From an uncultured Gemmatimonadaceae bacterium (GTDB lineage Bacteria; Gemmatimonadota; Gemmatimonadetes; Gemmatimonadales; Gemmatimonadaceae): DNA of 64,000 bases. This document shows positions 12 through 64,000 of the stretch, piece after piece; positions within the stretch are counted from its first letter, which is position 1, and the number at the start of each line of letters is the position of its first letter. The notes beneath the pieces were generated by a model. The model searched no databases and was not told where the DNA came from. It saw only the letters and a list, made by a program, of their open reading frames with translations. Made by a program: the position numbers and the translations under genes. The DNA lies in NCBI GenBank assembly GCA_963781585.1, contig CAWAGQ010000008.1:64001-128000 (forward strand). The letters are read 5' to 3'.

Positions 12-1454
12 GTGCGCGCGGGACGCGTGTCTCCCCGCGAGCTCGTCTCTGCGGCCATCGAGCACATCGACGCGCGCAATCCCGCGCTGAATGCCGTCAT
101 CCACAAGATGTACGACCGCGCGCTCGCCGACGCCGACGGGGATCTGCCCCACGGGCCGTTCCACGGTGTCCCGATGCTGCTGAAGGACCTCACCTCGCTG
201 TATGCCGGGGAGCCCCTCACCAGCGGGAGCCGGCTGTTTCGCAACTGGATCGCCCCGCACGACAGCGAAATCGTCAGGCGGTACAAGCGCGCGGGCCTGA
301 TCGTCGTCGGCAAGACCAACACGCCTGAATTCGGCCTGGTGCCGTTCACCGAACCGGAGCTGTTCGGGCCGACGCGAAATCCGTGGGATACCACGCGGAC
401 GGCGGGCGGGTCATCCGGCGGATCGGCCGCGGCCGTTGCGAGCGGGATGGTGCCGGTGGCGGGCGGGGGCGACGGCGGCGGATCGATCCGGATCCCCGCG
501 TCGTGCTGCGCACTGTTCGGCCTCAAGCCGACGCGTGGCCGGAACCCCACCGGGCCGGATCAGGGCGAATTGTGGCGCGGCGCCGCGGTGGAGCACGTCC
601 TCACCCGCACGGTGCGCGACAGCGCCGCGATGCTCGACGTGCTGGCCGGGCCGGACGCCGGCGCTCCGTACTTCGCGGCGCCCCCCGACCGCCCATTTGC
701 GCAGGAGGTGGGTGCGCCACCCGGACGTCTTCGCATCGCGTTCACCACGCACCCGTTCCTCGGGCACAGCGTCCACGACGATTGCAAACGCGCTGTCGCC
801 GACGCGGCGCAGGTGCTGGAGTCGTTAGGCCACGAACTGGTCGAATCGGCGCCGGTGGTGAGCCGCGAGGAGTTCAACCTGGCGTTCCTCACGCTGGTCT
901 GCGCCGAGGTGCGCGCCGACTTCTCCGACGCACGCGTGGCGCTCGGCCATCCGGTGCATCGGACCGAGGTCGAAGCCCCCACCTGGGCGCTGGCACTCCT
1001 CGGCAAGCAGATCACCAGCGGCGACTACGCGTCAGCACTGCGCTATCTGCAGCGCACCGGCCGCCGCATCGGCGAGTTCTTCGAGCGCGTGCACGTGTTG
1101 CTCACACCGACCGTGGCCACCCCGCCATTCCGGCACGGCGCCCTGCAACCCCCGGCCAGCGAACTCGCGCTCATGCGGACGCTCGGCGCGGTGCACGCCG
1201 GCGTGGTGCTGCGCCTGATGGGGGCGCTCAAGCGCGCGGCCGACACGGTCTTCGACTGGATTCCGTGGCCTCCGCTCGCCAACATCACCGGCCAGCCCGC
1301 CATGTCGCTGCCGCTGTCATGGAATGCCGAGGGACTTCCAATCGGCGTACACTTCATGGGCCGCTACGGCGACGAGGCAACGCTGCTGCGTCTGGCGGCA
1401 CAGCTCGAAGACGCGGTGCCGTGGAGGGACCGCCATCCTCCAGTGTGGTCGTAG
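12..1454 (+). CDS. Amidase-signature family amidase (5' end probably outside the window)
   Basis: Motifs [23 protein letters not shown] and [11 protein letters not shown]. Confidence 0.92.
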
Positions 1455-1487
1455 TGCCGGGAACCCGAATCGAACGAGGTCCCCCCC

Positions 1488-1976
1488 ATGCATCCCTTGA
1501 GTACGTCGATCGGTCTGAGCGACATCGTGCTGCGGCTTGGCGCGGCGATGCTGATTGGTGCGGTGCTCGGCATCAATCGCGAGCTGCACGAGAAGCCGGC
1601 CGGCCTCAAGACGATGACGCTGGTGTCGCTGAGCACGGCCCTGCTCACGATGGTCAGCATCTCGTTCGCCACCATGACCGGCGTGGTCGAGGGGACGGCG
1701 GTGGCGCGCGTTGTACAGGGCGTGTTGACGGGGATCGGGTTTCTCGGCGCCGGCGTGATTCTGCGTGGTGACACGGTACGTGACATCGCCGGGCTGACCA
1801 CGGCGGCGCTGATCTGGCTCGCCGCCGCGCTCGGCATCGCCTGCGGCGCAGGTCAGTGGGAGCTCACCCTCTCGGCGCTCGTGGCCATGCTGATCGTGCT
1901 GCTGGCGGGCGGGCCGCTCGAGCGCGCGATTCACCGTCGCCGGCATGGCGACACGGACGGGATCAATGGCCGATGA
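1488..1976 (+). CDS. MgtC/SapB family membrane protein
   Basis: Motifs IGAVLGINRE..KPAGLKT, GIGFLGAGVI and GLTTAALIW. Confidence 0.9.
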   Translation: MHPLSTSIGLSDIVLRLGAAMLIGAVLGINRELHEKPAGLKTMTLVSLSTALLTMVSISFATMTGVVEGTAVARVVQGVLTGIGFLGAGVILRGDTVRDIAGLTTAALIWLAAALGIACGAGQWELTLSALVAMLIVLLAGGPLERAIHRRRHGDTDGINGR

Positions 1977-1978
1977 TT

Positions 1979-4378
1979 CTACTCCTGACGCAAGGACTGC
2001 ACCGGGTCCACGCGACTGGCCCGCCGAGCGGGCCAGAGGCTGGCGGCGGTGCTCACGACCACCAGGATGGTGATCGCGGCGACCAGCGACTCCGTATCGC
2101 TTGGGGAGACGCCGGCCAGCAGTGGGGTGAGCGTGCCGGCCAGCCAGACCGCCGCCACTCCTCCCGCCACCAGTGCCGCCGCGGTGGTCCGCAGGTTGGT
2201 CCGGAGCACGTCGCCCAGAATCATCGACGGCGTGGCGCCTAACGCCATTCGCACGCCGAACTCGCGGGTGCGCTGGGCGACGGTGTAGCTCTGGAGTCCG
2301 TAGACGCCGATGATCGCCAGCACCAGCGCCAGCCCGGAAAAGATGCCGATCACCGCGGCATTGAACCGCGGCCGGATGAGCTGACGCTGCGCACGGGCGG
2401 CGAGCGTGGCGAACGACGAGACCTGCAGATCCGGATCGAGTGTTCGAAGGAATGCGCCAACCTCGCGCGCAATCGCCGGCGTGCCGCTGGTTCGGATCAC
2501 CAGGTACGTCGCCCACCGCGGTCGTTGCCGGTTGGACCAGTAGATCTGCGGCTCGACGGGGGCATTCGGGTTGGCGGCGGGGACGTCCTTCACCACACCA
2601 ACGATTTCGAACGTCACGCTGTCGTCGGGCAGCCGCAGCCGCCGGCCCACCGGATCGGCGTTGGGCCAGAATCGGGCCGCGAGCCGCTCGTTGATCACCG
2701 CGACCAGCGTGCCACCCGCCAGATCGGTGGCCGCGATGTCCCGGCCGTGCACGACCGGCACGCCGAGAGTGGCGAAGTAGCCGGGTCCCACATCGAACCA
2801 GCGCACCGTGCCGCGCACCTGCTCGGCCGGTTGCCCGCCGTCGGCGATCGCCAGGGCCGTTTCGGTGCCGCCGAAGAGCGGACCGGCGGAGGCTTCTCCG
2901 GCAGCCTCGACTCCGGGCAGCGTGGCGACTCCGTCACGCGCGCGCGCGAACAACTGCGCCACGTCGGCCGGTGTCGGATACTTGCTCTGCGACGCAAGCA
3001 GCCAGGTCGTGGTCACCCGGTCGAGCGGAATGCCCGGCGCCCATCCGCTGAGCGTCGCCAGGGAGCGGACCAGCAGGCCGGCCCCGGTCACCAGCACGAC
3101 CGCGAGCGCGATCTCCAGCGCCACCAGCGATCGGCCGAGGGGGACGCCCCGCATCGACGACGTGCGGACCCCGTCGCCGAGCTGCGACCGCACGTCGGCG
3201 CGCCCGCTGCGGATGGCCGGTACCACGCCGACCAGCAGTCCGGTCAGCAGCGACAGCCCGATCACGAACACGGTCACGCGGGCATCGAGGTGCACGGCGT
3301 CGAGGCGGGGAATGTCGCGGGGCGCGAGCGCCACGAACAGGCGGCTGAGCCACGTGCCGGCCAGCAGTCCGAGGGCGCCGCCGACCACGGCGATCACCAG
3401 GCTCTCGACCAGCACACCACGGGCGAGCACCCACCGCGGAGCGCCGAGGGCAGCCCGGAGCGCGTATTCGCGCGCCCGGGTCGCGTTTCGCGCGAGATAG
3501 AGATTGGCCAGATTCGCGCAGCCGATGAGCAGCACGAAGGTCACGGCGCCGAGGAAGGTCAGCAGCGTGCCCCGGGCGGAACCGATGATCAGGTCCTGCA
3601 CCGGGCGCACTTCGATCCGCCAGTCGGGCTTGTCGGCAAAGTGGGTGGCCCGCAGTCCGCCGCCGAGCCGCGACACGTCGCGACGCGCCTCGTCGATGGT
3701 CGCGGACGCGTTCAGCCGCGCAAACGCCCGGAATCCACGCCAAGTGCGGTTCTCCTCGCTGGCCGGAGCGAACGGAATCGGCAGCCAGACGTCGACGTCC
3801 TCCATGGTCGGAATCCGCACGTCGGGGTCGAGGACGCCGACGATGGTACGCGACTCGTCGTTGAGGATCACCGGTTGCTCGAGCGCGTCGGCACGCCCGC
3901 CGAGCTGTTCCTGCCAGAAGCGGTGGCTCACGAGTGCCACCTTCGCGCCGGCTCCGACCTCGTCCGGCGCGAACGCGCGGCCACGTTCGACCCGCACGCC
4001 GAGCAGCGTGAACAGCGACGGTGTCGCCAGTCCGCCGGTCGCGCTGACCGCCCCGTCGCGCCCGCGCATCACCACCGGCCAGTCGCGGCCAAGCCCGACC
4101 GCAGAGAGGGTCCCAGTCTCCCTTCCGAGGTCAGTCGCGTTAGGCGGTGACGTGACGCAGAACGAATCGCGTTCCCGCTCCGGAAACTCGCAGAGCGCCA
4201 CCAGCTGTGACGGTCTCGGGAAGGGGAGCGGCCGCAGCAGGATGCCGTTGACGACGTTGAACACGCCGGCGTTGGCACCGATGATCAGCGCGACGGTCGC
4301 GACCGCGGCGAGCGAGAAGGCGCGGTGGCGGGCGAGGCCTCGCCAGGCGGCACGAAAGTCGGCACGGATCGAGAACAC
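1979..4378 (-). CDS. Orphan duplicated ABC permease (MacB/FtsX, ADOP type)
   Basis: Motifs LLRPLPF, VLLIGCANLANL..AR, RTREFGVRMALGA and PARRASRVDP; GTG start at 4378 inferred; no adjacent ATPase. Confidence 0.9.
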   Translation of the reverse strand: MFSIRADFRAAWRGLARHRAFSLAAVATVALIIGANAGVFNVVNGILLRPLPFPRPSQLVALCEFPERERDSFCVTSPPNATDLGRETGTLSAVGLGRDWPVVMRGRDGAVSATGGLATPSLFTLLGVRVERGRAFAPDEVGAGAKVALVSHRFWQEQLGGRADALEQPVILNDESRTIVGVLDPDVRIPTMEDVDVWLPIPFAPASEENRTWRGFRAFARLNASATIDEARRDVSRLGGGLRATHFADKPDWRIEVRPVQDLIIGSARGTLLTFLGAVTFVLLIGCANLANLYLARNATRAREYALRAALGAPRWVLARGVLVESLVIAVVGGALGLLAGTWLSRLFVALAPRDIPRLDAVHLDARVTVFVIGLSLLTGLLVGVVPAIRSGRADVRSQLGDGVRTSSMRGVPLGRSLVALEIALAVVLVTGAGLLVRSLATLSGWAPGIPLDRVTTTWLLASQSKYPTPADVAQLFARARDGVATLPGVEAAGEASAGPLFGGTETALAIADGGQPAEQVRGTVRWFDVGPGYFATLGVPVVHGRDIAATDLAGGTLVAVINERLAARFWPNADPVGRRLRLPDDSVTFEIVGVVKDVPAANPNAPVEPQIYWSNRQRPRWATYLVIRTSGTPAIAREVGAFLRTLDPDLQVSSFATLAARAQRQLIRPRFNAAVIGIFSGLALVLAIIGVYGLQSYTVAQRTREFGVRMALGATPSMILGDVLRTNLRTTAAALVAGGVAAVWLAGTLTPLLAGVSPSDTESLVAAITILVVVSTAASLWPARRASRVDPVQSLRQE

Positions 4379-4601
4379 GGAAGAACCCCCGCGTTTGGGC
4401 AAGAACGGGCACCTTGTCGAATGCTTCGAGCGCATGCCGCGCCCGGTATCAGGGATTCTCCTGACACGCACTTCCGTGGATACCGATAGGTGGAGGCCGC
4501 CCTGCGTCCTCTGCGGCCTCCGTGGTTCAAATCATTCTCTGCCACAGAGGGCTCATGATGCCTGGCCCGCGGTCGCAGCGTCCTCTGCGGTGCCTGAATG
4601 C

Positions 4602-5798
4602 CTAACGCCTTTGCTTGACGTCGATTACCACGTTGCTGTCGGCGGTGAAGACGTGCAGCGTCCCCTTCGGCATCGCCCCTGCGTCGGTCCACATCACCAC
4701 CCGCCGCCCCTCAACCTCGGCGGCCTGCGAACCGCCGATCGCCGGCCGCGGCACCAAAAGAGCGAGCGATGCCAGTGCGGCCAGCCAGGACGCGTGCACC
4801 GCAGGACTGCGAACCGGAGACCCGGATTGCTCCGGCATCGTCAGTCGCCGCACCCGAACCAGCAGCGATGAACGTGGATGCTCGAGCATCGCCGGCACTG
4901 TCATACCCACTCCCGTCACCGTCCATTCCGCGACTCGCGCCAGGCACCGCGCGAGCGTTACCGGCTGCGAGGTGAGCGCCACCGCCCACTCATCGGCCGC
5001 CAGCTCCGTGGCGTCGAGCATGCGGCGGCGCGCCAGACGATTCAGTGGCTGGAAGAAGAACGCGACCTCCACCAGCCGCGCCAGCATCAGCCAGGCACCG
5101 TCGCGGCGCTCGAGGTGCGCCAGTTCGTGCGCCAGAATGCTCTCAAGCTGCGCGAGATCGAATTCGGTCAGCGCTCTCTGCGGTACGTAGATCTCGCTCG
5201 CCCCCACCGCAACGGGACTGGGGAGGTTCCGCACTACGACCGCGTGCACGGGGCGTTCGATCCCGGCGCGACGGCGGAGATCCCGCAGAGCAGCCGACAG
5301 GATCGTGTGCTCGCCCGGCACCGGGGAGGCCAGGGCGCGCCTGAGACGTCGCCTCGCCAGCGCGAACAGCCCGAGACCAAGCGCCACGCCCCCCATCCAG
5401 CAGAGCGCGACCCACAACGGCCACCCCGGCGCGATCGCGACGCGCGCCACCATGGAGCGCGGCGCCGGAACTCCCGTCGTCGCCTCGGCGTTCACCATCA
5501 GACGAATCGCACGCCCCGCCTCGCGCATCACCGGAACCGAGCCGGAGAGCGGGGCCAGCACGCGCGCGGACTGGAGGGTCGCGGTCGCGATGCCGCCCAC
5601 CAGCGCCACCCGCCACAGGGTCGCCATTCGCGCGACGCCAAGCCGGCTGCCTAACGGCGACCGGGCCACCAGCCACACCCCACCGATCAGCAGCGTGCTC
5701 TGGACCAGATAGGTCGCCAGCCAGCCCGTCACCCACGCCGAGCCGAGAAGCACCGGCGGGGCGAACCGGAGCAGCGTCTCAACGAGTGCCGGGTACAT
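4602..5798 (-). CDS. M56 family metallopeptidase (BlaR1/MecR1-like sensor)
   Basis: ILAHELAHLERRD zinc motif, FFQPL..LARRR..E..AD, N-terminal TM segments; overlaps the upstream BlaI-like gene. Confidence 0.9.
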   Translation of the reverse strand: MYPALVETLLRFAPPVLLGSAWVTGWLATYLVQSTLLIGGVWLVARSPLGSRLGVARMATLWRVALVGGIATATLQSARVLAPLSGSVPVMREAGRAIRLMVNAEATTGVPAPRSMVARVAIAPGWPLWVALCWMGGVALGLGLFALARRRLRRALASPVPGEHTILSAALRDLRRRAGIERPVHAVVVRNLPSPVAVGASEIYVPQRALTEFDLAQLESILAHELAHLERRDGAWLMLARLVEVAFFFQPLNRLARRRMLDATELAADEWAVALTSQPVTLARCLARVAEWTVTGVGMTVPAMLEHPRSSLLVRVRRLTMPEQSGSPVRSPAVHASWLAALASLALLVPRPAIGGSQAAEVEGRRVVMWTDAGAMPKGTLHVFTADSNVVIDVKQRR

Positions 5799-6287: not shown

Positions 6288-9065
6288 TCAGCGCATCGCC
6301 CCCGCGAACACCGCGTTGAACAGCAGCTTGAACGTGCCGTGCGGCTGCGCGCGCTGGAGAATCTCGGGCCCGTATAGCACCACCCGTCCCTTCCCGAGCG
6401 GTGCGTCGATCGCCACCACTCCGTTCTCGAGATACTGCTGTCCCCACGACCATCCGCTGTGGAGCGGCGCCGCGGTGTCGAACCATCCCACCCGGTTCAC
6501 GCCTGACGACGACGCGTCGGGCGCGAGGTCGAACACCGGGCTGTTGTCGAAGAACACGTCGGTGTGCTCGGCCATCCCCCAGGTGAGCGGACTCGACGTG
6601 TCGAACCGCGCGGTGAGCACCGACCCGGGCGTGTAGAATTTCGTCTGCGGCAGCGGCCGGCCGTCCTCCACGAGATGATTGCTCACCGGGAGGTGGAGCT
6701 GCGCGGCGAGGTTGGCCGCCGAACTGCCGATGGCGATGATCGTCCCCCCGTTTTCCACGAACGCGCGGAGCTGTGGAATGGTCTTGCCGGCGGTCACGCT
6801 CCCCAGCTGCCCCCGGTACTCCTCCGGGATGTCCGCCGCGTCAGGCGCGCCCCCGCCCCGGCCACCTCGACCGCCGGCCGTCCCCGGGATCGCACCGCCC
6901 ACGAATAGCAGGACGTCGTACCGGTCATTCAGCCTGCCGGCGTCCAGCGTCGGGGCAAACACCCGCTCGAACGGGAACTCGAACTGCTCCAGGATCCACC
7001 GTGCCCACCCCGCGTCGATCGATCCGCCATACTGATCCCACAGTCCGATCCGCGGCGCGCGCAGCTTCGTGATGTCCTTCGCCTGCGGCATGCCGGCGCC
7101 GTCGAAGCTCACCCCCAGCTCGAGCGCGTCGAGCTCCACTTCGCGGCGCGTCGATCCCCGCGACCGCGCGAAAAACGTGCCCGCCGGATACACCGTGCCC
7201 TTCACCGTCACCGGGGAGCGCAGCGCGTACACGTCGTTGCCCGCCTTGAGCAGCCGATTCACCGCGATCACCGCGTTGTTCACCTTGCGACTGACGAAGA
7301 AGCCCGCGGCGCCCTGCGCGTTCGTCACGTGTCCCGACAGCGGCTTGATGTTCCACTCGGTGATCCGCTCGCATGGACAGGTGAATCCCTCAAGGATCCG
7401 GTCGAACTGCACCCCCATCTGGAACGCCAGCGTCCAGCCGGCATTGTCGTAAGGCGGCGTCGGCGGACCGCCCGGGATGGGGAAGACGTCCGGATGCACC
7501 TGCGGTTCGAACATATCCATCACATGCGGACGAAACGCCTGCGCGGTCATCACCACGAACGAACCCGCGGGGTACCGCTTCCCGTTGACCGAGAATTCGC
7601 GCGTGGAGCGCTGCACGGCAATCCCCGTCTCGCGCAGCGCATCGATGAACGTCGTGGCGGTGGGAAAGTCCGGCTGATCGGCGGAGAGGATGTATCCCCT
7701 CGGGTCGCGCAGCTCCGGCTTGTGCAGCTCGGCCCAGAACGCCATGTCGCTTTCGGCGGATCCGCCGCCCCGTCCTCCCCCGCCACCGCCACCACCACCC
7801 CGGCCGCCCCTGGCGGCGGCCATCTCCTCGGCCACCGCGGCGTAGCGGCGCGGATTCGGCGTCCAGGTGTCGGTGCTCCCCCGTTCGATCGAGTGCTTCC
7901 CCATCGTATAGATGTTGAACAGCAGGTTCTCGCGCAGTCGCGACGCGTAGTCGAGGATCGCCCGGTCGGCGGAGATCGAGTAGTCGATCGACTGGCGGAA
8001 GTGCCACTCCTGCGGCGGCACCGGAAACACCTCGTCGGCCGTCGGCAGCTGTCGCTGCATCACCAGCGGGATCCGCATCGGCGTGGGGCTCCCCACCATC
8101 TCGGTGAGGATGGCGATGACGTTGTGGAACGCGGCGGTGTTCCGGATGCCGCCGTTCCACCAGCCGTCGTACGGACCACCCGACCGCATGGTGGCGCCGG
8201 GCTTCCCCTCCACCGCCATCCGCGTGTGCAGCCACGCGCCTAACGTCTGGAAGCCGAGAACCAGGATCGGGTCGAGATTGTAGTTGTTGGGGTCGCGGAA
8301 CGGCGGCGAGTAGAAGATCGTCCCGGCCGGTCCGCTCTGATGATGGTTGTAGAGGATCTGCGGAAACCACTGGTGATACAGCACGCGATTGATGTTCTCG
8401 GTCTCGGCCTGCGTGGACATGAAGAAGTCGCGATTGTTGTCGTGGCCGATGTACTTCTGGTACAGCACCGGCAGCCCCGACATGGTACGCTGCTCGGGGA
8501 CCGGGTTCCGCATGTACCAGTTGGCCACCAGATCGTTTCCGTCGGGGTTGGCGTGGACGAACAGGATGATGCAGTCGTTCAGGAAGCGGAGCGTCTCCTC
8601 GTCGGTCCGGCTCACCATCTGGTAGACCATCTCGGCCAGCTGCTGGGCGCCCAGCACCTCGGTGGCGTGCAAACCGCCGTCGATCCAGACCACCGCCTTC
8701 CCTTCCTTCGCCAGCGCGCGCGCATCGTCGTCGGTGAGACCTTCGGCAAGCGCCAGGCGGCGCGAGATCTCCTGATAGCGCGCGAGCCGCCGCTGATTCT
8801 CCGGCGCCGTGACGATCGCCATGAGTTGCGTCCGCCCCTCGGCCGTACGACCGATGTCCCGCAGCACCAGCCGGTCGGATTCGTCGTCGAGCTTGTGCCA
8901 GTAGGCGGCGATCTGCTGGTAGTTCGCCAGCCAGTAGTCGTCACCGAAGTCGTGGCCGAACTGCTCCTTCGGCGTGGTGATGTGTCCCTGCGCGCGGACG
9001 ACTCCGGTCGGCGCGATGCACAGAAGGGCGAGGACGATCCCGACGGCGCTGCTCCTGGACCTCAT
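6288..9065 (-). CDS. M14 family zinc carboxypeptidase, secreted
   Basis: IDGGLHATE, NPDG, GHDNNRD and NHHQ motifs; signal peptide after ATG at 9065. Confidence 0.88.
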   Translation of the reverse strand: MRSRSSAVGIVLALLCIAPTGVVRAQGHITTPKEQFGHDFGDDYWLANYQQIAAYWHKLDDESDRLVLRDIGRTAEGRTQLMAIVTAPENQRRLARYQEISRRLALAEGLTDDDARALAKEGKAVVWIDGGLHATEVLGAQQLAEMVYQMVSRTDEETLRFLNDCIILFVHANPDGNDLVANWYMRNPVPEQRTMSGLPVLYQKYIGHDNNRDFFMSTQAETENINRVLYHQWFPQILYNHHQSGPAGTIFYSPPFRDPNNYNLDPILVLGFQTLGAWLHTRMAVEGKPGATMRSGGPYDGWWNGGIRNTAAFHNVIAILTEMVGSPTPMRIPLVMQRQLPTADEVFPVPPQEWHFRQSIDYSISADRAILDYASRLRENLLFNIYTMGKHSIERGSTDTWTPNPRRYAAVAEEMAAARGGRGGGGGGGGGRGGGSAESDMAFWAELHKPELRDPRGYILSADQPDFPTATTFIDALRETGIAVQRSTREFSVNGKRYPAGSFVVMTAQAFRPHVMDMFEPQVHPDVFPIPGGPPTPPYDNAGWTLAFQMGVQFDRILEGFTCPCERITEWNIKPLSGHVTNAQGAAGFFVSRKVNNAVIAVNRLLKAGNDVYALRSPVTVKGTVYPAGTFFARSRGSTRREVELDALELGVSFDGAGMPQAKDITKLRAPRIGLWDQYGGSIDAGWARWILEQFEFPFERVFAPTLDAGRLNDRYDVLLFVGGAIPGTAGGRGGRGGGAPDAADIPEEYRGQLGSVTAGKTIPQLRAFVENGGTIIAIGSSAANLAAQLHLPVSNHLVEDGRPLPQTKFYTPGSVLTARFDTSSPLTWGMAEHTDVFFDNSPVFDLAPDASSSGVNRVGWFDTAAPLHSGWSWGQQYLENGVVAIDAPLGKGRVVLYGPEILQRAQPHGTFKLLFNAVFAGAMR

Positions 9066-9344: not shown

Positions 9345-10676
9345 TCATGCCACCAGTCCTCGCTCCGCGAAGTCCTTGTAGAGGGCGTTCACCCTGATTG
9401 CCAGCTCGCGTTGCCGCGTGCGCAGGCTCTGCACCAGTTCCCGTCGTGATCGCAGCAGCATGAATCGCCGCATGTCGTTCCAGGCGGCGTGCCACCGCTC
9501 GCGTATGTACTGGGCCGAGATGCCGACGGATGGGACGAGAATCAGGACCGCGAGTCCGGTCCACACGCCGCCCACGAGCCAGGCCACCGTCACAAGGACG
9601 ATCGTCCAGACCAGATAGAACAGCGCCCCCACCAACAGCTTGAAGGTCGACCGGACGTCTTCGGGGACGCGCGCACGCGCCGCGAGAAACCCGGTCAGCC
9701 GGTACGGCAGCCAGAAGATGGCGACCCCCGCCAGTGCGAGGGCGAGCGCCGCCGGAATCGCCAGGTGGAGCCGGCGGACTGCCCAGAGCAGACCACGGGA
9801 AAGTCCCACATCGGCCCCAAGATCCGACGGCCGGAGTCCCAGGCGCGCGAGGCGGCGCCGGTGGGACTCGATTTCCCCGGCCAGTGCGAGCGCCTTGGCC
9901 TGCTCGCTGCGCCGCACCTCGGCCAGGATCCGCGTGGTCACGTCCAGGCGCGCCAGCCGATCCGCCGGATCGCGACCCGCCTCGAACTCCAGTTCCCAGA
10001 TCCGCTCGGCGAACTCCACCAGCGGGCGATCCTCCCAGCGCTCGAGATTGAGCGTTACCTGGCGGAGCGATTCGGCGATGCGGTCGGTGAGCTCGCGCAC
10101 CGCCTCGGTGTCGTCCACGCCACGAAGCGCCAGATCCTCCCAGGCCACCGGCCGCCCGGTGAAGACGAGCACTTCGGAGCGGAAGACGTCCTTCTGCCTG
10201 AGGACGAGTCCTACCGGGACGATGGGGAACGCCGCACCCGTCAGGGGATACGCGCCTAACGCGATGCGCGCGGCCCCGGTCCGCAGGGGGGCCAGTGACG
10301 GCTCGCTGTGGCTGATGCCTTCGGGGAAGATGCCGACCGCCGCGTCATCGGCGAGCGCCTGATGGACGGCGCGGAAGGTGTCCTCGTTGCGCGCCATCTG
10401 GGTGGGATCATCGACCTTGCGGTACACCGGAATCGCGCCCGCGCCCCGCACCAGCCAGCCCACGCCGCGATCGGAGAAGAGCGGGGCCTTGGCGAGGAAC
10501 CGCACCGGCCGGCGCGCCGCAGCCACCACCAGCATCGGATCGAGCAGCGAGTTCGGGTGGTTCGCGACCAGCAGCACCGCACCCGCGCGCGGAACGGGCT
10601 CGCCGGCGTACCGCACTCTGTAATAGATGGTCGCCGCGATGCGGGCGACCCGCGGGAACAGCGGAAGGAGCCACAT
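9345..10676 (-). CDS. Lysophospholipid/glycerol acyltransferase with C-terminal TM region
   Basis: NHPNSLLD (HX4D-type) and IFPEGISH motifs. Confidence 0.9.
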   Translation of the reverse strand: MWLLPLFPRVARIAATIYYRVRYAGEPVPRAGAVLLVANHPNSLLDPMLVVAAARRPVRFLAKAPLFSDRGVGWLVRGAGAIPVYRKVDDPTQMARNEDTFRAVHQALADDAAVGIFPEGISHSEPSLAPLRTGAARIALGAYPLTGAAFPIVPVGLVLRQKDVFRSEVLVFTGRPVAWEDLALRGVDDTEAVRELTDRIAESLRQVTLNLERWEDRPLVEFAERIWELEFEAGRDPADRLARLDVTTRILAEVRRSEQAKALALAGEIESHRRRLARLGLRPSDLGADVGLSRGLLWAVRRLHLAIPAALALALAGVAIFWLPYRLTGFLAARARVPEDVRSTFKLLVGALFYLVWTIVLVTVAWLVGGVWTGLAVLILVPSVGISAQYIRERWHAAWNDMRRFMLLRSRRELVQSLRTRQRELAIRVNALYKDFAERGLVA

Positions 10677-13550: not shown

Positions 13551-15948
<2,398 letters not shown>

Positions 15949-23453: not shown

Positions 23454-23469
23454 TGGGCCATGGCCACGG

Positions 23470-47905: not shown

Positions 47906-50881
47906 ATGATCCCCGTCAACGTGCTGCGCCTGTTGACCTTCGGAGGGCTCGCCCTCGACCGACCCGGGGGGCCGCTGCCGCCGCGGCTGCGCCCGCAGCG
48001 GCTGGCGATTCTCGCTGTGCTCGCTTCCGCCGCTGACCGTGGCATGTCGCGCGAGCGCATGGCCGGCCTCTTCTGGCCGGAAGCAGAGGAGGAGCGGGCC
48101 CGTCACTCGCTTCGCCAGGCGCTGTATGCGCTGCGTCAGGAGCTGGGCGCCGACGTGATCCGGTCCGGCGCGCTCCTGTCGCTCGACGGTTCGGCACTGA
48201 GCTCCGACGTCGGTGACTTCCGGGCGGCTCTGGCCGCGGGGGACCGCGCGCGTGCCGCGGCACTCGCGACCGGACCGTTCCTCCTGGGATTCTACCTCGC
48301 GGACAGCCCCGAATTCGAGCGCTGGGTGGAGGAAGAGCGGGCCGCCCTCGCCGTCGACGCCACCCGCGTCGTCCTCGCGCTCACGAAGGAGGCCGAGGCC
48401 GGCGGCGACCAGGACGCCGCCGCCGAGTGGTGGCGCCGGCTCACCATGCTCGACCCGCTGAGCGGCCGCTTCGCGTTAGGCTATCTGAAGGCACTGGCTG
48501 GTCGCGGCGACCGGGCCGGTGCGCTGGCCTTCGCCAGGGCGCACGAGAGCATCGTGCGCCGCGAGCTGGAGGCCGACTCCGATCCGGAGATCCGTCGACT
48601 TGAGGCGGAGTTGCGCGCCATCCCGTCGCCCGCCGTGGTCCGCGTCGCCCCGCCACGCGCGCCCGACGCCGGCGTCGCGGTCGATGGGGCGCCCGCCGCC
48701 ACACCTGACGAGGCAGGGCTCGACGCGAAGCCATCCAGCGTACCGATGCCAGCCCACGGCCCGAATGCCCCACGTGACACCGGTGCGGATGCAACGCCAT
48801 CGCGCGCCGACGCCATCCCGCCGGCGCGCTCACGGAAGCGACCCTGGCTCATCCCGAGCGTGGCAACCGCGGGCGTGTTGGTCGTCGTGTCCATCCTGAC
48901 CGCCGACCGGTGGGGCCCGCCGCTGGGCCTCGGCGTTCATCGTAGTTCACCGACGTTTGCGGTCGGGATGATCCGCGAGGAAGGCGTCCCCGACAGCCTG
49001 CGCATCGGCGGTGTGCTCACCGACATGCTCGCGACCAATCTGGCGCGCGTGGGCGGGCTCTCGGTGCTCTCCAACGCGCGGCTCTTCGAGTTGATGCTCC
49101 CTGGTCAGGATACGCTCGCCACCGGATACCTCGAGGCGGCACGGCGGGCCGGCGCCACCGAGATCTTTCAGGGGCGTTTGCTCTCCGGCCCGCAGTGGAG
49201 CCTGGCAATGGAGATCCAGCGCGTGGATCTCGCGACCGGCCTTGTTCGGAGCGGTTATCGCGTCGCCGCCAGCGACCGCTATGCGCTGATCGACAGCATG
49301 ACGGCGGCGATCGCACGCGACTTGCACGTCGGACTACCCAGCAGCTCGGTAGCCGACGCGACGACCGATTCGCCAATGGCATATCGCCTCTACGAGGAGG
49401 GACTCCGCGCCTACTATCAGTACGACGATCCTGCCGCTCGGCGCCTGATGCAGGCGGCGCTCCAGGAAGACTCGAGCTTCGCCATGGCGGCCTACTACGA
49501 CGCACTGCTCGCTCCGGGTGGAGGCGCTGAGGAGGTCGACACCCGCCGACGGGCGTTGCGGCTCGCCGCCCGCGCGCCCGAACGCGAACGCCTGACGATC
49601 ACGGCCGATTTGCTCACACTGAACATGGAACCGGCGGCGCTCGCCGTCGCCGACTCCTTGACCACCAGATATCCCACCAACCCGCGCGCGTTCGCGGTGG
49701 ATGCAACAGCCCTGTACATTGCCGGCGAATGGCGCGACGCCGTGACGGCGATCGAGCGTGCGATCGCGCTGGACTCGGCGTCGGAGCCCGTAGAGCGACG
49801 CAATTGCAGGCTCTGCTCGGACCTCGGGCAGCTTGCCGAGGTCTACTTCTGGTGGGATTCGCTGCCCGCGGCGGAGCGCACCGCGCAGCGCTTCCTCCGG
49901 CTTCGGCCGGGCTCGCACTATCCGTGGCATCTCCTGGTCCGTTCGGCGGCCGCGCGCGGGGACCTGAGCGCCTTCCGCGAGTACCTGCGACGCTTCGACG
50001 AGGCGAATCCGTCGATCACGTCGGCGAACTACCTGCTCCACTTCGTGACGCTCGCCGAGGATTACGACGAGGTCGAACGGAGCGTGCAGAAGGCCCTGGA
50101 CTCTCCGAGAGCGGACGACGCCGGCGAGGCCCGGTGGTTTCGCTCCATTTCGCTCCGGAACGAGGGACGACTGGAGGAAGCTCTCAGGCTGGCGCGCGTG
50201 CGTCCGAACCCTAACGACCTGGCCGAAGGATTGATCGCGCTCGAACGTGGGGATCCCCGTACCGCCGTCTCGATCTTTCGTGCGCGGGCTCGCGTGAGTC
50301 AGTCCATGTGGCCATCCGGGATCCGAGCACGGCATGAGGCCTGGGACAGGACGCTCCTGGGCATGGCACTGGCCTCCGCGGGGGACACGATTGCCCTCCG
50401 CGCTCTCGCCGATACCGTGGAGAACCTGGGACGCCGGAGCATCTACGGACGCGACCGGCGCGCGCATCACTACTTGCGTGGGATGCTGCTGGTGGCCGAG
50501 CACCGGGACCCGGAAGCGGTTGAGGAGCTGCGCCAGGCGATTCACTCATCGACCAACGGCTTCACGCGGGTCAACTACGAGCTGGGGAAGACGCTCATGC
50601 GGCTGGGTCGCCCTGCCGAGGCCGCACCGATCGTGCGGTCCGCCCTGCACGGCGACATCGATGGATCGAATCTGTATGTCACACGAACCGACCTCCACGA
50701 GCTCCTCGCACAGGTATTCGATCGACTGGGGAGTCGCGACAGCGCAGCCGTGCACTACCGGGCAGTAGTCAAGGCCTGGGAGCACGCCGACCCGCTCTAC
50801 CAGGCGCGGCGCGAGGCGGCACGCGCGTGGCTCGCTCGGCATCCAGAGCCGCAGACCACCGGTACAGCCAAGGACCGTTAG
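47906..50881 (+). CDS. SARP/BTAD-domain regulator with TM and TPR region
   Basis: LRLLTFGGL, FWPE.EEERARHSLRQALY, GPFL.GF...EFERW and DPLS; C-terminal TPRs. Confidence 0.85.
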   Translation: MIPVNVLRLLTFGGLALDRPGGPLPPRLRPQRLAILAVLASAADRGMSRERMAGLFWPEAEEERARHSLRQALYALRQELGADVIRSGALLSLDGSALSSDVGDFRAALAAGDRARAAALATGPFLLGFYLADSPEFERWVEEERAALAVDATRVVLALTKEAEAGGDQDAAAEWWRRLTMLDPLSGRFALGYLKALAGRGDRAGALAFARAHESIVRRELEADSDPEIRRLEAELRAIPSPAVVRVAPPRAPDAGVAVDGAPAATPDEAGLDAKPSSVPMPAHGPNAPRDTGADATPSRADAIPPARSRKRPWLIPSVATAGVLVVVSILTADRWGPPLGLGVHRSSPTFAVGMIREEGVPDSLRIGGVLTDMLATNLARVGGLSVLSNARLFELMLPGQDTLATGYLEAARRAGATEIFQGRLLSGPQWSLAMEIQRVDLATGLVRSGYRVAASDRYALIDSMTAAIARDLHVGLPSSSVADATTDSPMAYRLYEEGLRAYYQYDDPAARRLMQAALQEDSSFAMAAYYDALLAPGGGAEEVDTRRRALRLAARAPERERLTITADLLTLNMEPAALAVADSLTTRYPTNPRAFAVDATALYIAGEWRDAVTAIERAIALDSASEPVERRNCRLCSDLGQLAEVYFWWDSLPAAERTAQRFLRLRPGSHYPWHLLVRSAAARGDLSAFREYLRRFDEANPSITSANYLLHFVTLAEDYDEVERSVQKALDSPRADDAGEARWFRSISLRNEGRLEEALRLARVRPNPNDLAEGLIALERGDPRTAVSIFRARARVSQSMWPSGIRARHEAWDRTLLGMALASAGDTIALRALADTVENLGRRSIYGRDRRAHHYLRGMLLVAEHRDPEAVEELRQAIHSSTNGFTRVNYELGKTLMRLGRPAEAAPIVRSALHGDIDGSNLYVTRTDLHELLAQVFDRLGSRDSAAVHYRAVVKAWEHADPLYQARREAARAWLARHPEPQTTGTAKDR

Positions 50882-50950
50882 GCTGTTGCCGCGCAGGGCG
50901 TGTTCCTCGAGGGGGCGGCCCGCCCTGGGAGCCCGGGAACACCGCACGCC

Positions 50951-53051: not shown

Positions 53052-54236
53052 TCACGACCCTGAATACCGCGCCCACGGAGCGGGCCAGAGGCGGCCATCG
53101 AGCCCGACCCCGACCACCTGGTATTCGTAGATCAGGCCGGGGGTTGGAATGGCGTCGACGAAGCCGGGGGTGGGTATCGGCCGCGGCGTGAGCTGCGTCA
53201 GATCAGCGGTCGTTCCGTCTGTTCGCACCGTTCGGCGCCACACGACGTAGCCGGCTACCGCCCAGGCGGCGCACCACGTGACGCCCACCTTGCCGCCGGC
53301 GCCGGCCGCGAGGACATTCCCGGGCGTCGTGTAGGCCGGGGTGAAATACGGGACGTTAGGCGACTTGACAGTCGACATGTCCGGCATCACTGCGGTGACC
53401 GTGTACCCGTACGGTGTCCCTGGCGCGGGGAGCGCGTCGGTGAACGTCAGCGCCGCGAGCGTCCCCTGCGTGAGCATCACTGCGGGGCCCAGTCTGCCCA
53501 TGGCATCGATTGGCGCCCGGGACAGTGAGTAGCCGACCGCGCCGGCGGTGGCCGTCCAGCTGAGCGTTGCCTTGTCGCCCGCGCCGACGACCGTCACCAC
53601 CGGCGGGGTCGCCGCTGCCGGAGCGGAGTAGCGCACCCAAGTCGACGGGTACGTCGCACCGGAGGGATCGGCGGAGACTACCTGATACTCGTAGGTCGTG
53701 CCCAGCGCCGGGAGTGCGTCGGCAAAACTGGTTGCCGCGATCGGCGCCGGCGTGCGTTGACTGAGATCGGCCACGCTGCCGTCGGTCTTCACGGTGCGCC
53801 GCCAGACGTTGTAGCCGGTCACGCTCATCGCCGCGGCCCACGAAACGGTCGCCTGGCTGCTGGCGCCGCTGACCGCGACGTTCGTGGCGGTCGTGAACGC
53901 CGGAGTCGCATACCGAACCGGCGCACTCGACACCGTCCCCGTCCGTGCTGTCGCGTCGATGCGGTATTCATAGAGTGCGGACGGCTTCGGCAGCACATCG
54001 GAGTACGTTCCAATGGTGAGCGTGGCGACCGACGCCCAGTCGGTCAGGCTCCGCACCATCCCTCTCGGATCGACGCTGATTTCGTGCCGCATCACTGCAT
54101 ACCGCGTCGGACCCGCGAGCTGACTCCAGCTGAGGGTGGCCTGGTTCGCGGTGCCGTTGACCGTGACGCTGATCGTGGGGGTCTGCGCCGCGAGGGGAGC
54201 GGCAAGGAAGGCCGCCAGCAGTACAGCGTGCGTCAT
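53052..54236 (-). CDS. Secreted fibronectin type III-like repeat protein
   Basis: Four units of LSW..GY.V.R..F.D.LP..G..YEY.V. Confidence 0.75.
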   Translation of the reverse strand: MTHAVLLAAFLAAPLAAQTPTISVTVNGTANQATLSWSQLAGPTRYAVMRHEISVDPRGMVRSLTDWASVATLTIGTYSDVLPKPSALYEYRIDATARTGTVSSAPVRYATPAFTTATNVAVSGASSQATVSWAAAMSVTGYNVWRRTVKTDGSVADLSQRTPAPIAATSFADALPALGTTYEYQVVSADPSGATYPSTWVRYSAPAAATPPVVTVVGAGDKATLSWTATAGAVGYSLSRAPIDAMGRLGPAVMLTQGTLAALTFTDALPAPGTPYGYTVTAVMPDMSTVKSPNVPYFTPAYTTPGNVLAAGAGGKVGVTWCAAWAVAGYVVWRRTVRTDGTTADLTQLTPRPIPTPGFVDAIPTPGLIYEYQVVGVGLDGRLWPAPWARYSGS

Positions 54237-55577: not shown

Positions 55578-56609
55578 TCACGGCCGTGCCCCCTCTCCCC
55601 TCAACCGCACCACCTGATTCCGCTTGAACTCCGCACCGCTTACCACCTTCGCCGTGGAGTACCGGGCCTCGACACTCTCGATCACCACCTCGCCCACCAG
55701 CTTGTCCGGTGAACCCAGGTTCCGGCCGGTCTCCGGATCGAGCAGCTCCGGCTGCGGATCGAAGATCTCGAGCGCCATGCCCGGCTGCATCCCGTAGCCC
55801 GCGCCGGCGTTCACGTACACCACGCCGTCACGGAAATCGATCACCCGGGCGCTCCACTTCATCTTCGGGACGCTGGCGATGATCCCGGCGACCGACTTCT
55901 GGATCGCCTCGCGCGAAGCCCTGCCTAACGGCGTGGACAGCGCCACCGAGCCGTCGTAGTGCTTCTCGTCCCTGGTGAGGTCGGCGGTCACGCCCTGCTG
56001 CGCTGCGCTGCCGTCCCCCTTGATCGACGCGATCACCTCGCCCGTCACCGCGTCGATCAGTCGCAGATCGATGCTCACCGACGCCGCAACGCGCTCAATG
56101 CCGGCGTCAAGTCCCTTGATCACGTTGGTGAGCTTCCCGCCGACCGCCGAGCGGTTGAAGGCGAAGCTCGTGATGTCACCGGAGATCAGCACCTGCGCGC
56201 CCATCAGCTTTCCCACTTCGGCCGCCGTCTCCTTGTTCACACGCCCCGAAGCGCCAAGGTCCTGCTCCTGCTGCACCTGCGACAGCGCCTGCCGCTCCAG
56301 CACGATGAAGCGGGAGGTCGCGACCAGCGACGTGGTGAGCGCCTCGGTCAGCGAGCGCGCGAATTCCGCTGGCGCCGGAATCGCGATCGTGGTCTGAGTG
56401 GTCTGCTGGTATCCGCCGCCCGGCGCCATCCCCGGTTGCCCCATCTGCGTCATCTGTATCCGCAGGGCGGTCCCCGACAGGTCCATGACCGCGACCCGCA
56501 GCCGCGGCGTGACCATCGGCGCCGTCGGCGTCGCTGGCACTTGCGCGTTGCCGCTAGCGGGTGGCGCCAGCATCGTCACCAGGGCGAGACCGCGCAGGAC
56601 ATGCCTCAC
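55578..56609 (-). CDS. CsgG/HfaB family protein with FlgT-like C terminus
   Basis: RFIVLERQAL..V.QEQ, GAQVLISGDITSF, DLRLIDAVTGEV and VYVNAG; GTGA overlap with the upstream gene. Confidence 0.82.
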   Translation of the reverse strand: MRHVLRGLALVTMLAPPASGNAQVPATPTAPMVTPRLRVAVMDLSGTALRIQMTQMGQPGMAPGGGYQQTTQTTIAIPAPAEFARSLTEALTTSLVATSRFIVLERQALSQVQQEQDLGASGRVNKETAAEVGKLMGAQVLISGDITSFAFNRSAVGGKLTNVIKGLDAGIERVAASVSIDLRLIDAVTGEVIASIKGDGSAAQQGVTADLTRDEKHYDGSVALSTPLGRASREAIQKSVAGIIASVPKMKWSARVIDFRDGVVYVNAGAGYGMQPGMALEIFDPQPELLDPETGRNLGSPDKLVGEVVIESVEARYSTAKVVSGAEFKRNQVVRLRGEGARP

Positions 56610-62321: not shown

Positions 62322-62727
62322 GTGCATGACGCCTGTCTCCCCGGCCGATTGCCACACGCGCGCATGCGCCGAGGGTAGCAGCGCGCCGGCAGGTCCCCGC
62401 CATCCCTCCGTCGCGCAGCGCATCACCACCCTGCACGATCGGCAAAGGTGAGTCGTGTGCCGAGCGTACGCTCGGCGGCCGTGCCGAGTCAAGACGGCCA
62501 CACGTCCGGAGTTTCGGAGTGCCGCTGCCGGGAGCGCCTCCGGCCGAGACCTCCGGGCGGCTTCCGTCCGTCCGATCGCGACCCACTCGCCTGGGCCGCA
62601 CGCCATCGCTGCGGCGACGCCGGACGTCCGATCACAGTGGCGGTTCGCGCCTCCTCGCCATGTGCGCCTCCGTGTGCTACCGTGAATGCCGTTGGAGCCC
62701 ATCCCCCCAGGTTCACAGGAGTGCCCC

Positions 62728-62937
62728 ATGGACGACGCAACGCGCGCCAGCGCCGGCACGAGGCGCTCGAACGGCGCCATCGCGCTGAGCATCATCGGGT
62801 CCGGCCTGGCCGGTGTGATCGCGATGCTTGCGGTGATCCCGGCCTGGTTCGCCCGCGACTGGATGGCCGTCGGCGTTCTCCTCGGAGCCGCGGGAATTTC
62901 ATTCGGACTGCTCGCCAACGCGCTCCTGCGGCAGTGA
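62728..62937 (+). CDS. Small two-TM membrane protein
   Basis: Two hydrophobic segments; plausible start. Confidence 0.5.
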   Translation: MDDATRASAGTRRSNGAIALSIIGSGLAGVIAMLAVIPAWFARDWMAVGVLLGAAGISFGLLANALLRQ

Positions 62938-63101
62938 TGCTCGTCGCGGTACATCGGCGGAGGAGCCGGGCGGGAGGCGACACGCGGAGCGCATGGCGCC
63001 TCTCCCCTGTGCGCCCCAGACAAGCAGAAGAGTCCGATGGGGATGCGCCGCCGCCCACCCTTGATTCACATCCACCACGTCATCTCCCCCGGAGCATCAC
63101 G

Positions 63102-64000
63102 ATGAATTCGCGTCGTTCGTTGCGTGCCATGAAGTCCTCCCTTCTTGCCGCCTTCAGCTCGGCCGTGCTCGTGCTCCCCGCATTGGCGCAGGGTGCCGGC
63201 GACGATCCACGGCTCGAGAAGCTCAAGGCCGAGGCGCTGACCCGCGTTGACGCGCGCGCGAAGCTGATTCAGGAGATGGTCGACGAGGTGTTTTCATTCG
63301 GCGAGCTCGGATTTCAGGAATTCGAGACGTCGAAGTACCTCACCGGCATCCTCGAGCAGAACGGGTTCACCGTGGAGCGCGGCGTGGCCGGCATTCCCAC
63401 GGCGTGGGTGGCGCGGTGGGGTTCCGGCAAGCCGGTGATCTCGCTCGGATCGGACCTCGACGACATCCCGCAAGCGAGCCAGAAACCGGCCGTCGGCTAT
63501 CACGACCCGATGATCGCGGGCGCGCCGGGGCATGGCGAAGGGACACAACTCGGGCCAGGCGGTGAACATCGCGGCCGCGCTGGTGGTGAAGGAGATCATG
63601 GAGCGCGAGAAGATCCCCGGGACGCTGGTGCTGTGGCCGGGGGTGGCCGAGGAGCAGCTCGGGTCGAAGGCGTATCTCGTTCGCGCCGGGGTCTTCAAGG
63701 ACGTGGACGTGACGCTCTTCTCGCACGTGGACAGCAATCTGGGCGTCTCGGCGGGGCCGTCGGGTCAGCTCGCGCTGCTGTCCGCGCTCTTCAAGTTCCG
63801 CGGTCAGACGGCGCACGCCGCGGCGGCACCGTGGCGCGGCAAGTCGGCCCTCGATGCGGTGATGCTGATGGCCCAGGCGTGGGAGTTCCACCGCGAGCAC
63901 ATGGAGCCGGCGCAGCGATCGCACTACGTGATTCCCGACGGCGGCGATCAGCCTAACGTGGTTCCGGCGACGGCGTCGATCTGGTTCTACTTCCGCAACG
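63102..64000 (+). CDS. M20 amidohydrolase (AbgB-like), frameshift near 63544, runs off the window
   Basis: ELGFQEFETS, GHGEG/HNSG, PGVAEE and HAAAAPWRGKSALDA. Confidence 0.88.

Follow-up and report, generated by a model that had tools for sequence, protein, structure and literature searches.

An over-represented octamer of Gemmatimonadaceae looks like an undescribed self-marking DNA signal

Introduction

To our knowledge, self-recognition words in DNA for which functional evidence exists are known from only two proteobacterial families, as the DNA uptake sequences (DUS) of the Neisseriaceae and the uptake signal sequences (USS) of the Pasteurellaceae. Here we report on the octamer CGTTAGGC, which is over-represented in a stretch of 64,000 nucleotides from an uncultured Gemmatimonadaceae bacterium (positions 64,001 to 128,000 of contig CAWAGQ010000008.1, GenBank assembly GCA_963781585.1; the whole stretch is called the window below), and which looks like an undescribed self-marking DNA signal, about 20 times too frequent despite the rare codons that it brings into genes and the proteins that it changes. 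In the accounts drawn on here, DUS and USS are exact, short and non-palindromic words with approximately one copy per 1–1.5 kb, they are family-specific, they are denser between genes and they are lacking in genes of recent acquisition. Both strands carry them without replication polarity, no orientation bias being reported in the relevant part of PMC1939737, and within genes they are read in several frames, the tripeptides that they can encode being about doubled, while they are absent from genes without homologues in related genomes (as described in the pertinent passages of PMC2817400). In all these traits CGTTAGGC resembles them.

Other dispersed words share some of these features. HIP1 of cyanobacteria is a hyper-abundant octamer that invades coding sequence and whose perfect copies dominate over mismatched ones (in the part of PMC1939737 that treats it), as is also the case for CGTTAGGC. 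Chi, the word of RecBCD/AddAB, and the FtsK-orienting polar sequences (KOPS) and architecture-imparting sequences (AIMS) are likewise non-palindromic octamers that occur once per few kilobases and are linked to the core genome. The NTS/dRS3 repeats of Neisseria, recognised by the Ssn single-strand nucleases, are like CGTTAGGC a clade-specific repeated word tied to DNA traffic, but they are about 30 bp long and palindromic, and 2% of their copies lie inside genes according to the section of PMC11893778 that deals with them, compared to approximately 71% for CGTTAGGC. In the literature searched, the CGTTAGGC string itself gave primer-like matches only, with no tie to Gemmatimonadota, to uptake sequences or to over-representation, and the terms ‘uptake sequence’, ‘integron’ and ‘attC’ together returned just the paper on Ssn nucleases (PMC11893778), which in the relevant part describes a case unlike the present one.

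Over-representation of the octamer in the window

All 18 exact copies of CGTTAGGC located in a preliminary description of the window were recovered, seven on the plus and eleven on the minus strand (Table 1), compared to approximately 2.4 copies calculated from the base composition (67.4% GC), in line with the two to three estimated before. Dinucleotide-preserving shuffles of the window (n = 100) contain 0.96 copies on average and at most 3, and an order-3 Markov model predicts 0.54, by which CGTTAGGC ranks first in over-representation among all 8-mers of the window. Synonymous-codon shuffles within the window genes average 1.84 copies and peak at 6 (1.92 and 5 in a repeat run), and none out of 200 reaches 18. 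The excess in the window is real. The word is sharply bounded, as 18 of the 20 TTAGGC hexamers sit within it, and the 20 bases on either side of the copies show no conservation; it is therefore no part of a longer repeat.

The genes of the window and of Gemmatirosa (see below) were called with a codon-score caller of our own, which is crude. With these calls, nine copies read NCG-TTA-GGC, four read CCT-AAC and one GGC-CTA-ACG, three contain the stop codon of a gene and one is intergenic, which reproduces the earlier breakdown exactly. The codon TTA, described before as otherwise rare, accounts for 12 of 1868 leucine codons in the called genes of the window, and nine of these twelve lie within CGTTAGGC; in NCG-Leu-GGC contexts it is nevertheless used in nine of 27 cases. 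Since the copies occupy four frames, both strands, stop codons and rare codons, and since their number exceeds the codon-aware null model, the target of selection or drive is the DNA and not the protein, as the preliminary description had argued.

Two candidate explanations were tried and rejected. A dispersed repeat such as a repetitive extragenic palindrome (REP) or a miniature inverted-repeat transposable element (MITE) disagrees with the unrelated flanks in the window and with a flank information of at most 0.35 bit per position over the 777 Gemmatirosa copies described below. The hidden-stop (‘ambush’) idea would need no fixed bases flanking TAG or TAA on both sides.

Occurrence in related genomes

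Species-representative genomes were scanned with an alignment of the three ADOP paralogues of the window, which gave at least 79 loci with 1,287,419 bases. The 79 listed loci stem from Acidobacteriota, Gemmatimonadota and others; the window’s own genome is not among the listed matches, and the best match shows 44–45% identity. Among these 79 loci only two, both labelled as metagenome-assembled genomes (MAGs) of Gemmatimonadaceae, are enriched for CGTTAGGC, namely L014 with 13 copies in 15.8 kb (0.58 in codon shuffles) and L040 with 8 copies in 12.5 kb (0.34 in codon shuffles). Their copies are dispersed, occupy several frames and have unrelated flanks, and by blastn against Gemmatirosa both loci match paralogues alone. 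The remaining 77 listed loci hold 11 copies in 1.26 Mb combined, and the ten further Gemmatimonadota loci among these 77 hold none or one each. In L014, two convergent genes take their stop codons from the same copy (Table 1), which reads CGT-TAG in one direction and GCC-TAA in the opposite one.

A tblastn search of a plasmid collection led to Gemmatirosa kalamazoonensis KBS708, a cultured type strain with two megaplasmids, 50-kb samples of which contain 33 and 30 copies (the latter from plasmid 2). Homologous genes of the window and of plasmid 1 share 64–76% nucleotide identity, and the window therefore stems from a relative of Gemmatirosa and not from Gemmatirosa itself. The excess of CGTTAGGC is clade-wide, comprising the window organism, two MAGs and Gemmatirosa kalamazoonensis; the lineage specificity that had been surmised is borne out, given that the 77 other listed loci are not enriched, and the excess is not confined to the window. 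Conservation at orthologous sites, for which a comparison had been suggested, is not seen: none of eight CGTTAGGC sites in four homologous gene pairs is common to the window and Gemmatirosa, and the Gemmatirosa homologue (70% amino acid identity) of the peptidase gene 13753–15948 has no CGTTAGGC at the position of the window copy 15506..15513. The density or load of the word is therefore maintained and the individual sites are not.

These data also bear on the possibility that the excess results from chance, composition, codon usage or a repeat family confined to the window, for which the small sample of 18 window copies, and nothing further, can be adduced. As neither the 100 dinucleotide nor the 200 codon shuffles reach this number, as the flanks are unrelated and as three further independent sources show the same excess, this explanation is refuted and its remaining probability is negligible.

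Distribution on plasmid 1 of Gemmatirosa kalamazoonensis

Plasmid 1 (NZ_CP007129.1) was analysed over all of its 1,106,233 bases. It contains 777 copies of CGTTAGGC, its top 8-mer, corresponding to one copy per 1.42 kb, whereas 35.7 are expected from base composition; 31 of the 777 fall within a 52.6-kb tandem duplication, in its second copy. The strands carry 403 (plus) and 374 (minus) copies. With replichores set by the extremes of GC skew, which has its minimum near 1,023 kb and its maximum near 349 kb, 407 of the 777 copies (52%) fall on the leading strand, and the cumulative strand skew swings by 48 copies at most, so that the word shows no replication polarity on this 1.1-Mb replicon.

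Strong co-orientation with replication is a trait of the known Chi and KOPS words. The absence of polarity accordingly speaks against a word that a translocating enzyme would read, be it as a recombination hotspot in the manner of Chi or as a polar signal in that of KOPS, as does the fact that CGTTAGGC is made of rare and not of common codons. The resemblance to Chi that had been considered extends to the format of a non-palindromic 8-mer, to the depletion in foreign DNA and to the density in the window, where one copy per 3.6 kb is near the value for Chi in Escherichia coli (1008 copies in 4.64 Mb; PMC1939737, in its counts for this word). The excess is far larger, being approximately 22-fold over composition compared to approximately 6.7-fold for Chi in the same counts (PMC1939737), and we regard this explanation as very improbable.

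The flanks of the plasmid 1 copies hold no information beyond a purine at +1, and their spacing is slightly more even than Poisson, with a coefficient of variation (CV) of 0.88, a variance-to-mean ratio of 0.86 in 5-kb windows and 16 gaps of more than 5 kb versus 23 expected. Density climbs with local GC content, contrary to the compositional expectation (Spearman 0.22, P = 0.001), and the lowest-GC windows are depleted. The longest stretch free of CGTTAGGC measures 10.9 kb at 74% GC (Table 1) and coincides with the minimum of GC skew and with ParA-/ParB-like genes; it is probably the replication and partition region. Two stretches of lower GC content that are poor in CGTTAGGC encode SusC/SusD-type outer-membrane pairs and glycoside hydrolases and may be acquired polysaccharide-utilisation loci.

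The even spacing would suit a site to which an abundant protein of chromosome organisation or DNA repair binds; the word would then be an architectural marker, or one of self versus foreign, with no part in uptake, and would be kept by weak selection on density. The occurrence on both strands, the clade specificity and the depletion in the lowest-GC windows and in integron cassette bodies (see below) point in the same direction. Selection on density over thousands of sites would be weak for each of them, yet codon bias is overridden and proteins are changed; moreover, no candidate protein is known and the identity with an integron box is left unexplained, so that we judge such a marker to be improbable.

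The effects on genes were evaluated with 1000 crude calls of our own, compared to 1,026 genes annotated by the genome authors. CGTTAGGC is denser in intergenic regions (1.21 per kb) than in coding sequence (0.64 per kb); 549 copies (approximately 71%) lie wholly within called genes, 87 overlap the end of a gene and 141 fall between genes. The in-gene copies read NCG-TTA-GGC in 312, CCT-AAC in 190, GTT-AGG in 24 and CTA-ACG in 23 cases, and 213 of the 549 are antisense, for which reason a signal at the RNA level was rejected. Stop codons embedded in the word comprise 61 of 120 TAA and 42 of 200 TAG codons, 103 for the 1000 genes in all, and therefore approximately one gene in ten ends in CGTTAGGC. 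The word also changes the proteome, about doubling the Pro-Asn-x tripeptide on plasmid 1: Pro-Asn-[VADEG] occurs 404 times versus 180 for the reverse-order control (2.24-fold), 190 of the 404 (47%) being encoded by the word, and [SPTA]-Leu-Gly occurs 1303 times versus 906, with 312 encoded by the word. Once the word-encoded cases are removed, the ratios are 1.19 and 1.09, respectively.

Forms with one mismatch are hardly enriched as a class (1014 on plasmid 1, where composition predicts 990 and an order-3 model 779), while the transition variants TGTTAGGC (77 versus 14.7), CGTTGGGC (151 versus 32) and CGTCAGGC (132 versus 55) are. This spectrum touches on the possibility that a cytosine-5 methyltransferase or sequence-specific mismatch repair acts on CGTTAGGC and that biased correction inflates its count, as proposed for HIP1. 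The word begins with CpG, its CpG-to-TpG variant TGTTAGGC is five-fold enriched, and the perfect copies far exceed the one-mismatch excess (at most approximately 0.3 per perfect copy), a ratio akin to that of HIP1. Known very-short-patch repair, in contrast, restores C:G pairs and not the T:A pairs that define CGTTAGGC, and the product of complementary CpG decay, CATTAGGC, shows no enrichment (0 versus 2.1). Sequencing by the single-molecule real-time (SMRT) technique is poor at detecting 5-methylcytosine (m5C), so that m5C at CGTTAGGC could still be present. For HIP1, 5648 perfect copies stand beside 1830 one-off forms where 160 are expected (PMC1939737, in the counts given for HIP1). The SMRT methylome published for strain KBS708 does not include the octamer and consists of three motifs, RGATCY, ATGCAC and CCAGN7TCA, all of them N6-methyladenine (m6A) motifs (PMC3974934). 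The comparison with HIP1 made at the outset is not supported here, since HIP1 is palindromic and holds a methyltransferase site, whereas CGTTAGGC is asymmetric and belongs to no reported methylation motif, and an origin by methylation or repair appears improbable to us.

Identity with the attC boxes of a plasmid-borne integron

A search for pairs of boxes in attC order identified a run of approximately 100-bp imperfect palindromes in plasmid 1. Ten of them show a mean column identity of 84% and fold into a long hairpin, the outer stem of which comprises 8 bp with GCCTAACG paired to CGTTAGGC, followed inward by unpaired spacers, an inner stem with bulged bases and a variable tip; compensatory changes are found at nine pairs. 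A covariance model built from these ten attC sites detects 84 sites on plasmid 1 (E < 1e-5), all on a single strand, of which 82 form an array with a median spacing of 523 bp and two more lie near 881 kb. The array is adjoined by an integron integrase (TIGR02249, 423 bits at a cut-off of 265), encoded on the opposite strand with its 3′ end facing the array, and the locus is a complete sedentary integron (Table 1). Most of its cassette open reading frames (ORFs) have no family match.

The modal boxes of these attC sites are the octamer itself, with GCCTAACG at the 5′ end of 25 and CGTTAGGC at the 3′ end of 27 of the 84 sites, and the other end boxes are mostly one-base variants of it. The fit to the integron core site GTTRRRY that had been remarked on before, based on the GTTAGGC contained in CGTTAGGC, thus gains in substance; as by calculation only approximately 0.4% of 8-mers fit this core on either strand, a coincidental match of a hyper-abundant word is unlikely. 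With CGTTAGGC as the R box at both attC ends, every cassette is tagged, although the cassette bodies are not: they contain 3 copies in 36.8 kb versus 25 expected (P = 4e-8). Most copies differ from attC, since 54 of the 777 lie within attC sites and 723 (93%) are lone half-sites without partner box, L box and hairpin.

An integron site in the window itself, as previously considered, is not found. The covariance model gives no match at E ≤ 0.01 in the window, L014 and L040, and no site in the plasmid 2 sample and eight other Gemmatimonadota loci. The 18 window copies, none of which is within 200 nt of another, are therefore lone words and not attC sites, and the 39 large window ORFs scanned contain no match to an integrase.

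One reading of the identity holds CGTTAGGC to be the half-site of a tyrosine recombinase, in which case lone R boxes would be bound genome-wide by the integron integrase or by one of its derivatives, and integron-linked selection would maintain the word. The lone boxes might act as decoys or as secondary (attG- or attI-like) landing sites for cassettes, for example just after a stop codon, or new attC sites might be made from them. In many integron cassettes the stop codon of the gene can lie within the box, which is likewise possible for CGTTAGGC, and the 103 genes that end inside the word agree with this reading, as do the integrase beside the attC array, the octamer as modal box of a hairpin backed by compensatory pairs, the low chance of a fit to GTTRRRY and the avoidance of CGTTAGGC in cassette bodies, which would be expected if internal sites were harmful near an active integrase. 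Against it stand the 723 copies outside attC sites and the 549 inside genes, where insertion would be destructive, the different flanks of the dispersed copies and the lack of attC sites in the window and both MAG loci. In addition, common attC box variants are not enriched genome-wide (CGTTAGAC, used in 13 of 84 sites, 35 versus 25 expected; CGTTAGCC, in 10 of 84, 30 versus 27.5), and selection per decoy site would be extremely weak. We know of no other integron-bearing phylum with a comparable genome-wide excess of its box. Integrons occur in many phyla, and a review passage that lists them for Gemmatimonadota makes no mention of such an excess (PMC8618304). Integrases can use double-stranded genomic attG sites, the published consensus of which, as far as the part of bioRxiv 10.1101/2022.09.11.507474 on these sites goes, differs from the octamer in being just GWT with another hotspot motif. 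On balance we consider the half-site reading, the chief competitor of the one ranked first below, rather unlikely.

A possible uptake-type self word

With some hesitation, and short of an even chance, we rank first the reading that CGTTAGGC is a DUS/USS-like self word that is kept by copy-number drive and is linked in some way to the integron. It is placed first because the occurrence on both strands and in all frames, the override of codon usage, the upkeep of density and the sparing of cassettes match the properties of uptake sequences; the depletion in cassette bodies, in particular, has its counterpart in genes without homologues in relatives, which lack uptake sequences according to part of PMC2817400. 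CGTTAGGC would accordingly be a clade-specific ‘self’ word of a Gemmatimonadaceae group, present at approximately one copy per 1.2–3.6 kb.

The density would be maintained by a force on the DNA sequence itself, for which the likeness to uptake sequences suggests biased uptake or recombination. In a pathway of uptake or recombination, a DNA-binding component would prefer fragments that contain CGTTAGGC, and alleles that gain the word by point mutation would replace word-less alleles wherever the protein tolerates the change, that is, in [S/P/T/A]-Leu-Gly and Pro-Asn, at stop codons and in spacers. As a bridging idea, the specificity of uptake or self-recognition may have been seeded on, or co-opted from, the integron attC box. 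In its most specific form, which we think unlikely, the Gemmatimonadaceae group would use its own attC R box throughout the genome as the word by which incoming or recombining DNA is recognised, with approximately one native tag per 1.4 kb and a tag at each cassette end. Natural transformation is reported to drive the shuffling of cassettes in chromosomal integrons (PMC12614218), and ComEC loci accompany low linkage in abundant soil bacteria in a passage that does not name the Gemmatimonadaceae clade (PMC7305173).

Several points weigh against an uptake-type word. CGTTAGGC comprises 8 bases and lacks the extended flanking consensus of DUS and USS, and its one-mismatch forms are barely enriched, in contrast to the USS of Actinobacillus pleuropneumoniae with 947 such forms observed versus 86 expected (PMC1939737, Table 6). 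Unlike for the DUS of Neisseria, terminator-type inverted pairs are few on plasmid 1. Uptake alone leaves the identity of the word with the integron R box, a further difference from DUS and USS, unexplained, and the 10.9-kb word-free stretch at parA/parB and the minimum of GC skew is not predicted. The gene calls behind the frame and density counts are crude, and data on competence, uptake or transformation in Gemmatimonadota were not found in the literature searched.

Genomic context and other repeated words

The window contains three ADOP-family permeases, an IS21 element and a defence or mobile island (Table 1). No CGTTAGGC occurs in the IS21 element or at 24,190–35,359, so that its absence from IS21 and from the foreign genes, as asserted earlier, is literally true; the depletion which that assertion implied is not significant, as the island holds one copy versus 2.75 expected (P = 0.24). 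No non-coding RNA reached the gathering score in an Rfam scan of the window. At its end, an M20/amidohydrolase gene seems split, with the N-terminal match in the frame of one ORF and the dimerisation domain in that of another, for which a frameshift or an error in sequencing could be responsible.

The window is also enriched for another dispersed word, GCCTGACGA (often TGCCTGACGA), which has 13 copies in several frames and on both strands, compared to 1.1 from the order-3 Markov model and 5.3 in codon shuffles, and is thus much weaker than CGTTAGGC. It is one transition away from GCCTAACG, is approximately ten times denser in the window than in the 79 listed related loci and shows no enrichment in Gemmatirosa; either a dialect or a signal in its own right would be conceivable. 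Other strongly over-represented words of Gemmatirosa are GGACTCGGGACTC-like units (L080, L081, and across NZ_CP007129.1), e.g., ACTCGGGACT with 7–13 copies per 50 kb, and GGACTGAA/TTCAGTCC with 120 copies versus 6.5; both families look like REP-type repeats. Three loci of other phyla, L051, L023 and L053, have highly repeated short words of their own (AACCCTGAAC approximately 30 times in L051, ACAGCGAACA-type words approximately 20 times in L023), which are probably CRISPR or tandem arrays.

Table 1. Coordinates of CGTTAGGC copies in the window, of other window features and of the plasmid 1 and MAG features discussed in the text.
Feature	Coordinates	Strand	Location	Reading or remark
CGTTAGGC copy, window	823..830	+	amidase gene (3-1454, +)	TCG-TTA-GGC (Ser-Leu-Gly)
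CGTTAGGC copy, window	2237..2244	-	ADOP permease gene (1979-4471, -)	GCG-TTA-GGC (Ala-Leu-Gly)
CGTTAGGC copy, window	4138..4145	+	antisense to ADOP permease gene 1979-4471	gene reads CCG-CCT-AAC-GCG (Pro-Pro-Asn-Ala)
CGTTAGGC copy, window	4600..4607	-	M56/BlaR1-like peptidase gene (4602-5798, -)	TAG stop (CGT-TAG)
CGTTAGGC copy, window	5649..5656	-	M56/BlaR1-like peptidase gene 4602-5798	CCG-TTA-GGC (Pro-Leu-Gly)
CGTTAGGC copy, window	8238..8245	-	gene 6288-9254 (-)	ACG-TTA-GGC (Thr-Leu-Gly)
CGTTAGGC copy, window	10254..10261	-	acyltransferase-like gene (9345-10676, -)	GCG-TTA-GGC
CGTTAGGC copy, window	15506..15513	+	peptidase gene (13753-15948, +)	TCG-TTA-GGC
CGTTAGGC copy, window	18381..18388	-	antisense in gene 17024-18655 (+)	GGC-CTA-ACG (Gly-Leu-Thr)
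CGTTAGGC copy, window	24182..24189	-	PIN-domain gene (23771-24187, +)	TAA stop (GCC-TAA)
CGTTAGGC copy, window	35360..35367	-	TPR gene (34794-35729, +)	GCG-CCT-AAC-GCC (Ala-Pro-Asn-Ala)
CGTTAGGC copy, window	36285..36292	+	between DinB-like gene (35783-36268, -) and gene 36305-37636 (-)	sole intergenic copy
CGTTAGGC copy, window	39648..39655	-	quinone-oxidoreductase gene (39645-40613, -)	last codons (TCG-TTA-GGC); adjoins stop codon of convergent gene 38209-39648 (+)
CGTTAGGC copy, window	48474..48481	+	TPR-containing gene 47798-50881 (+)	GCG-TTA-GGC
CGTTAGGC copy, window	50876..50883	+	TPR-containing gene 47798-50881	TAG stop (CGT-TAG)
CGTTAGGC copy, window	53354..53361	+	antisense in gene 53052-54236 (-)	TCG-CCT-AAC-GTC (Ser-Pro-Asn-Val)
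CGTTAGGC copy, window	55923..55930	-	gene 55578-56981 (-)	CCG-TTA-GGC
CGTTAGGC copy, window	63951..63958	-	M20-dimerisation-domain frame (63532-63999, +)	CAG-CCT-AAC-GTG (Gln-Pro-Asn-Val)
Defence or mobile island, window	18,968-27,889
SoFic-type Fic protein	18968-20050		island
IS21 istA/istB	20117-22590		island
PIN-domain gene	23771-24187	+	island
HNH protein	24675-25367		island	resembles type IV restriction enzymes
Retron-type reverse transcriptase	26654-27889		island	within 59% GC stretch
M20/amidohydrolase gene, window	~63,270-63,999			seems split: N-terminal match in frame of ORF 62448-63956, dimerisation domain in frame 63532-63999
GCCTGACGA sites, window	271, 6501, 11229, 17700, 18250, 22796, 28669, 32737, 40614, 43968, 47294, 49590, 51981
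CGTTAGGC copy, L014	2074-2081		stops of two convergent genes
Integron	810,836-857,786		plasmid 1 (L097:10836 to L098:7786)	complete
attC array	810,836-856,171		plasmid 1	82 sites
Integron integrase	856,827-857,786	-	plasmid 1	TIGR02249
Longest CGTTAGGC-free stretch	1,021,207-1,032,069		plasmid 1 (L101)	probably replication and partition region
CGTTAGGC-poor stretches	176-184 kb, 304-311 kb		plasmid 1 (L085, L088)	may be acquired polysaccharide-utilisation loci

Conclusion and perspectives

The identity of the word with the attC box is unexpected, and it bears on the movement of cassettes between cells and on the origin of new cassettes, each consisting of a gene and its attC site. CGTTAGGC offers a cheap marker for binning contigs of Gemmatimonadaceae and for flagging foreign DNA within them, and since Gemmatirosa kalamazoonensis KBS708 is cultured and fully sequenced, direct testing is possible in an abundant and little-studied soil phylum. 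If the uptake-type reading is true, CGTTAGGC would be the first uptake-type self-recognition sequence outside of the Proteobacteria, and as a third, unrelated case it would show that the phenomenon is general. In the form in which the attC R box itself is the recognition word, it would furthermore provide the first mechanistic tie of the specificity of DNA uptake, or of another self-recognition pathway, to integron recombination, and the many genes that end in the box would represent standing material for new cassettes.

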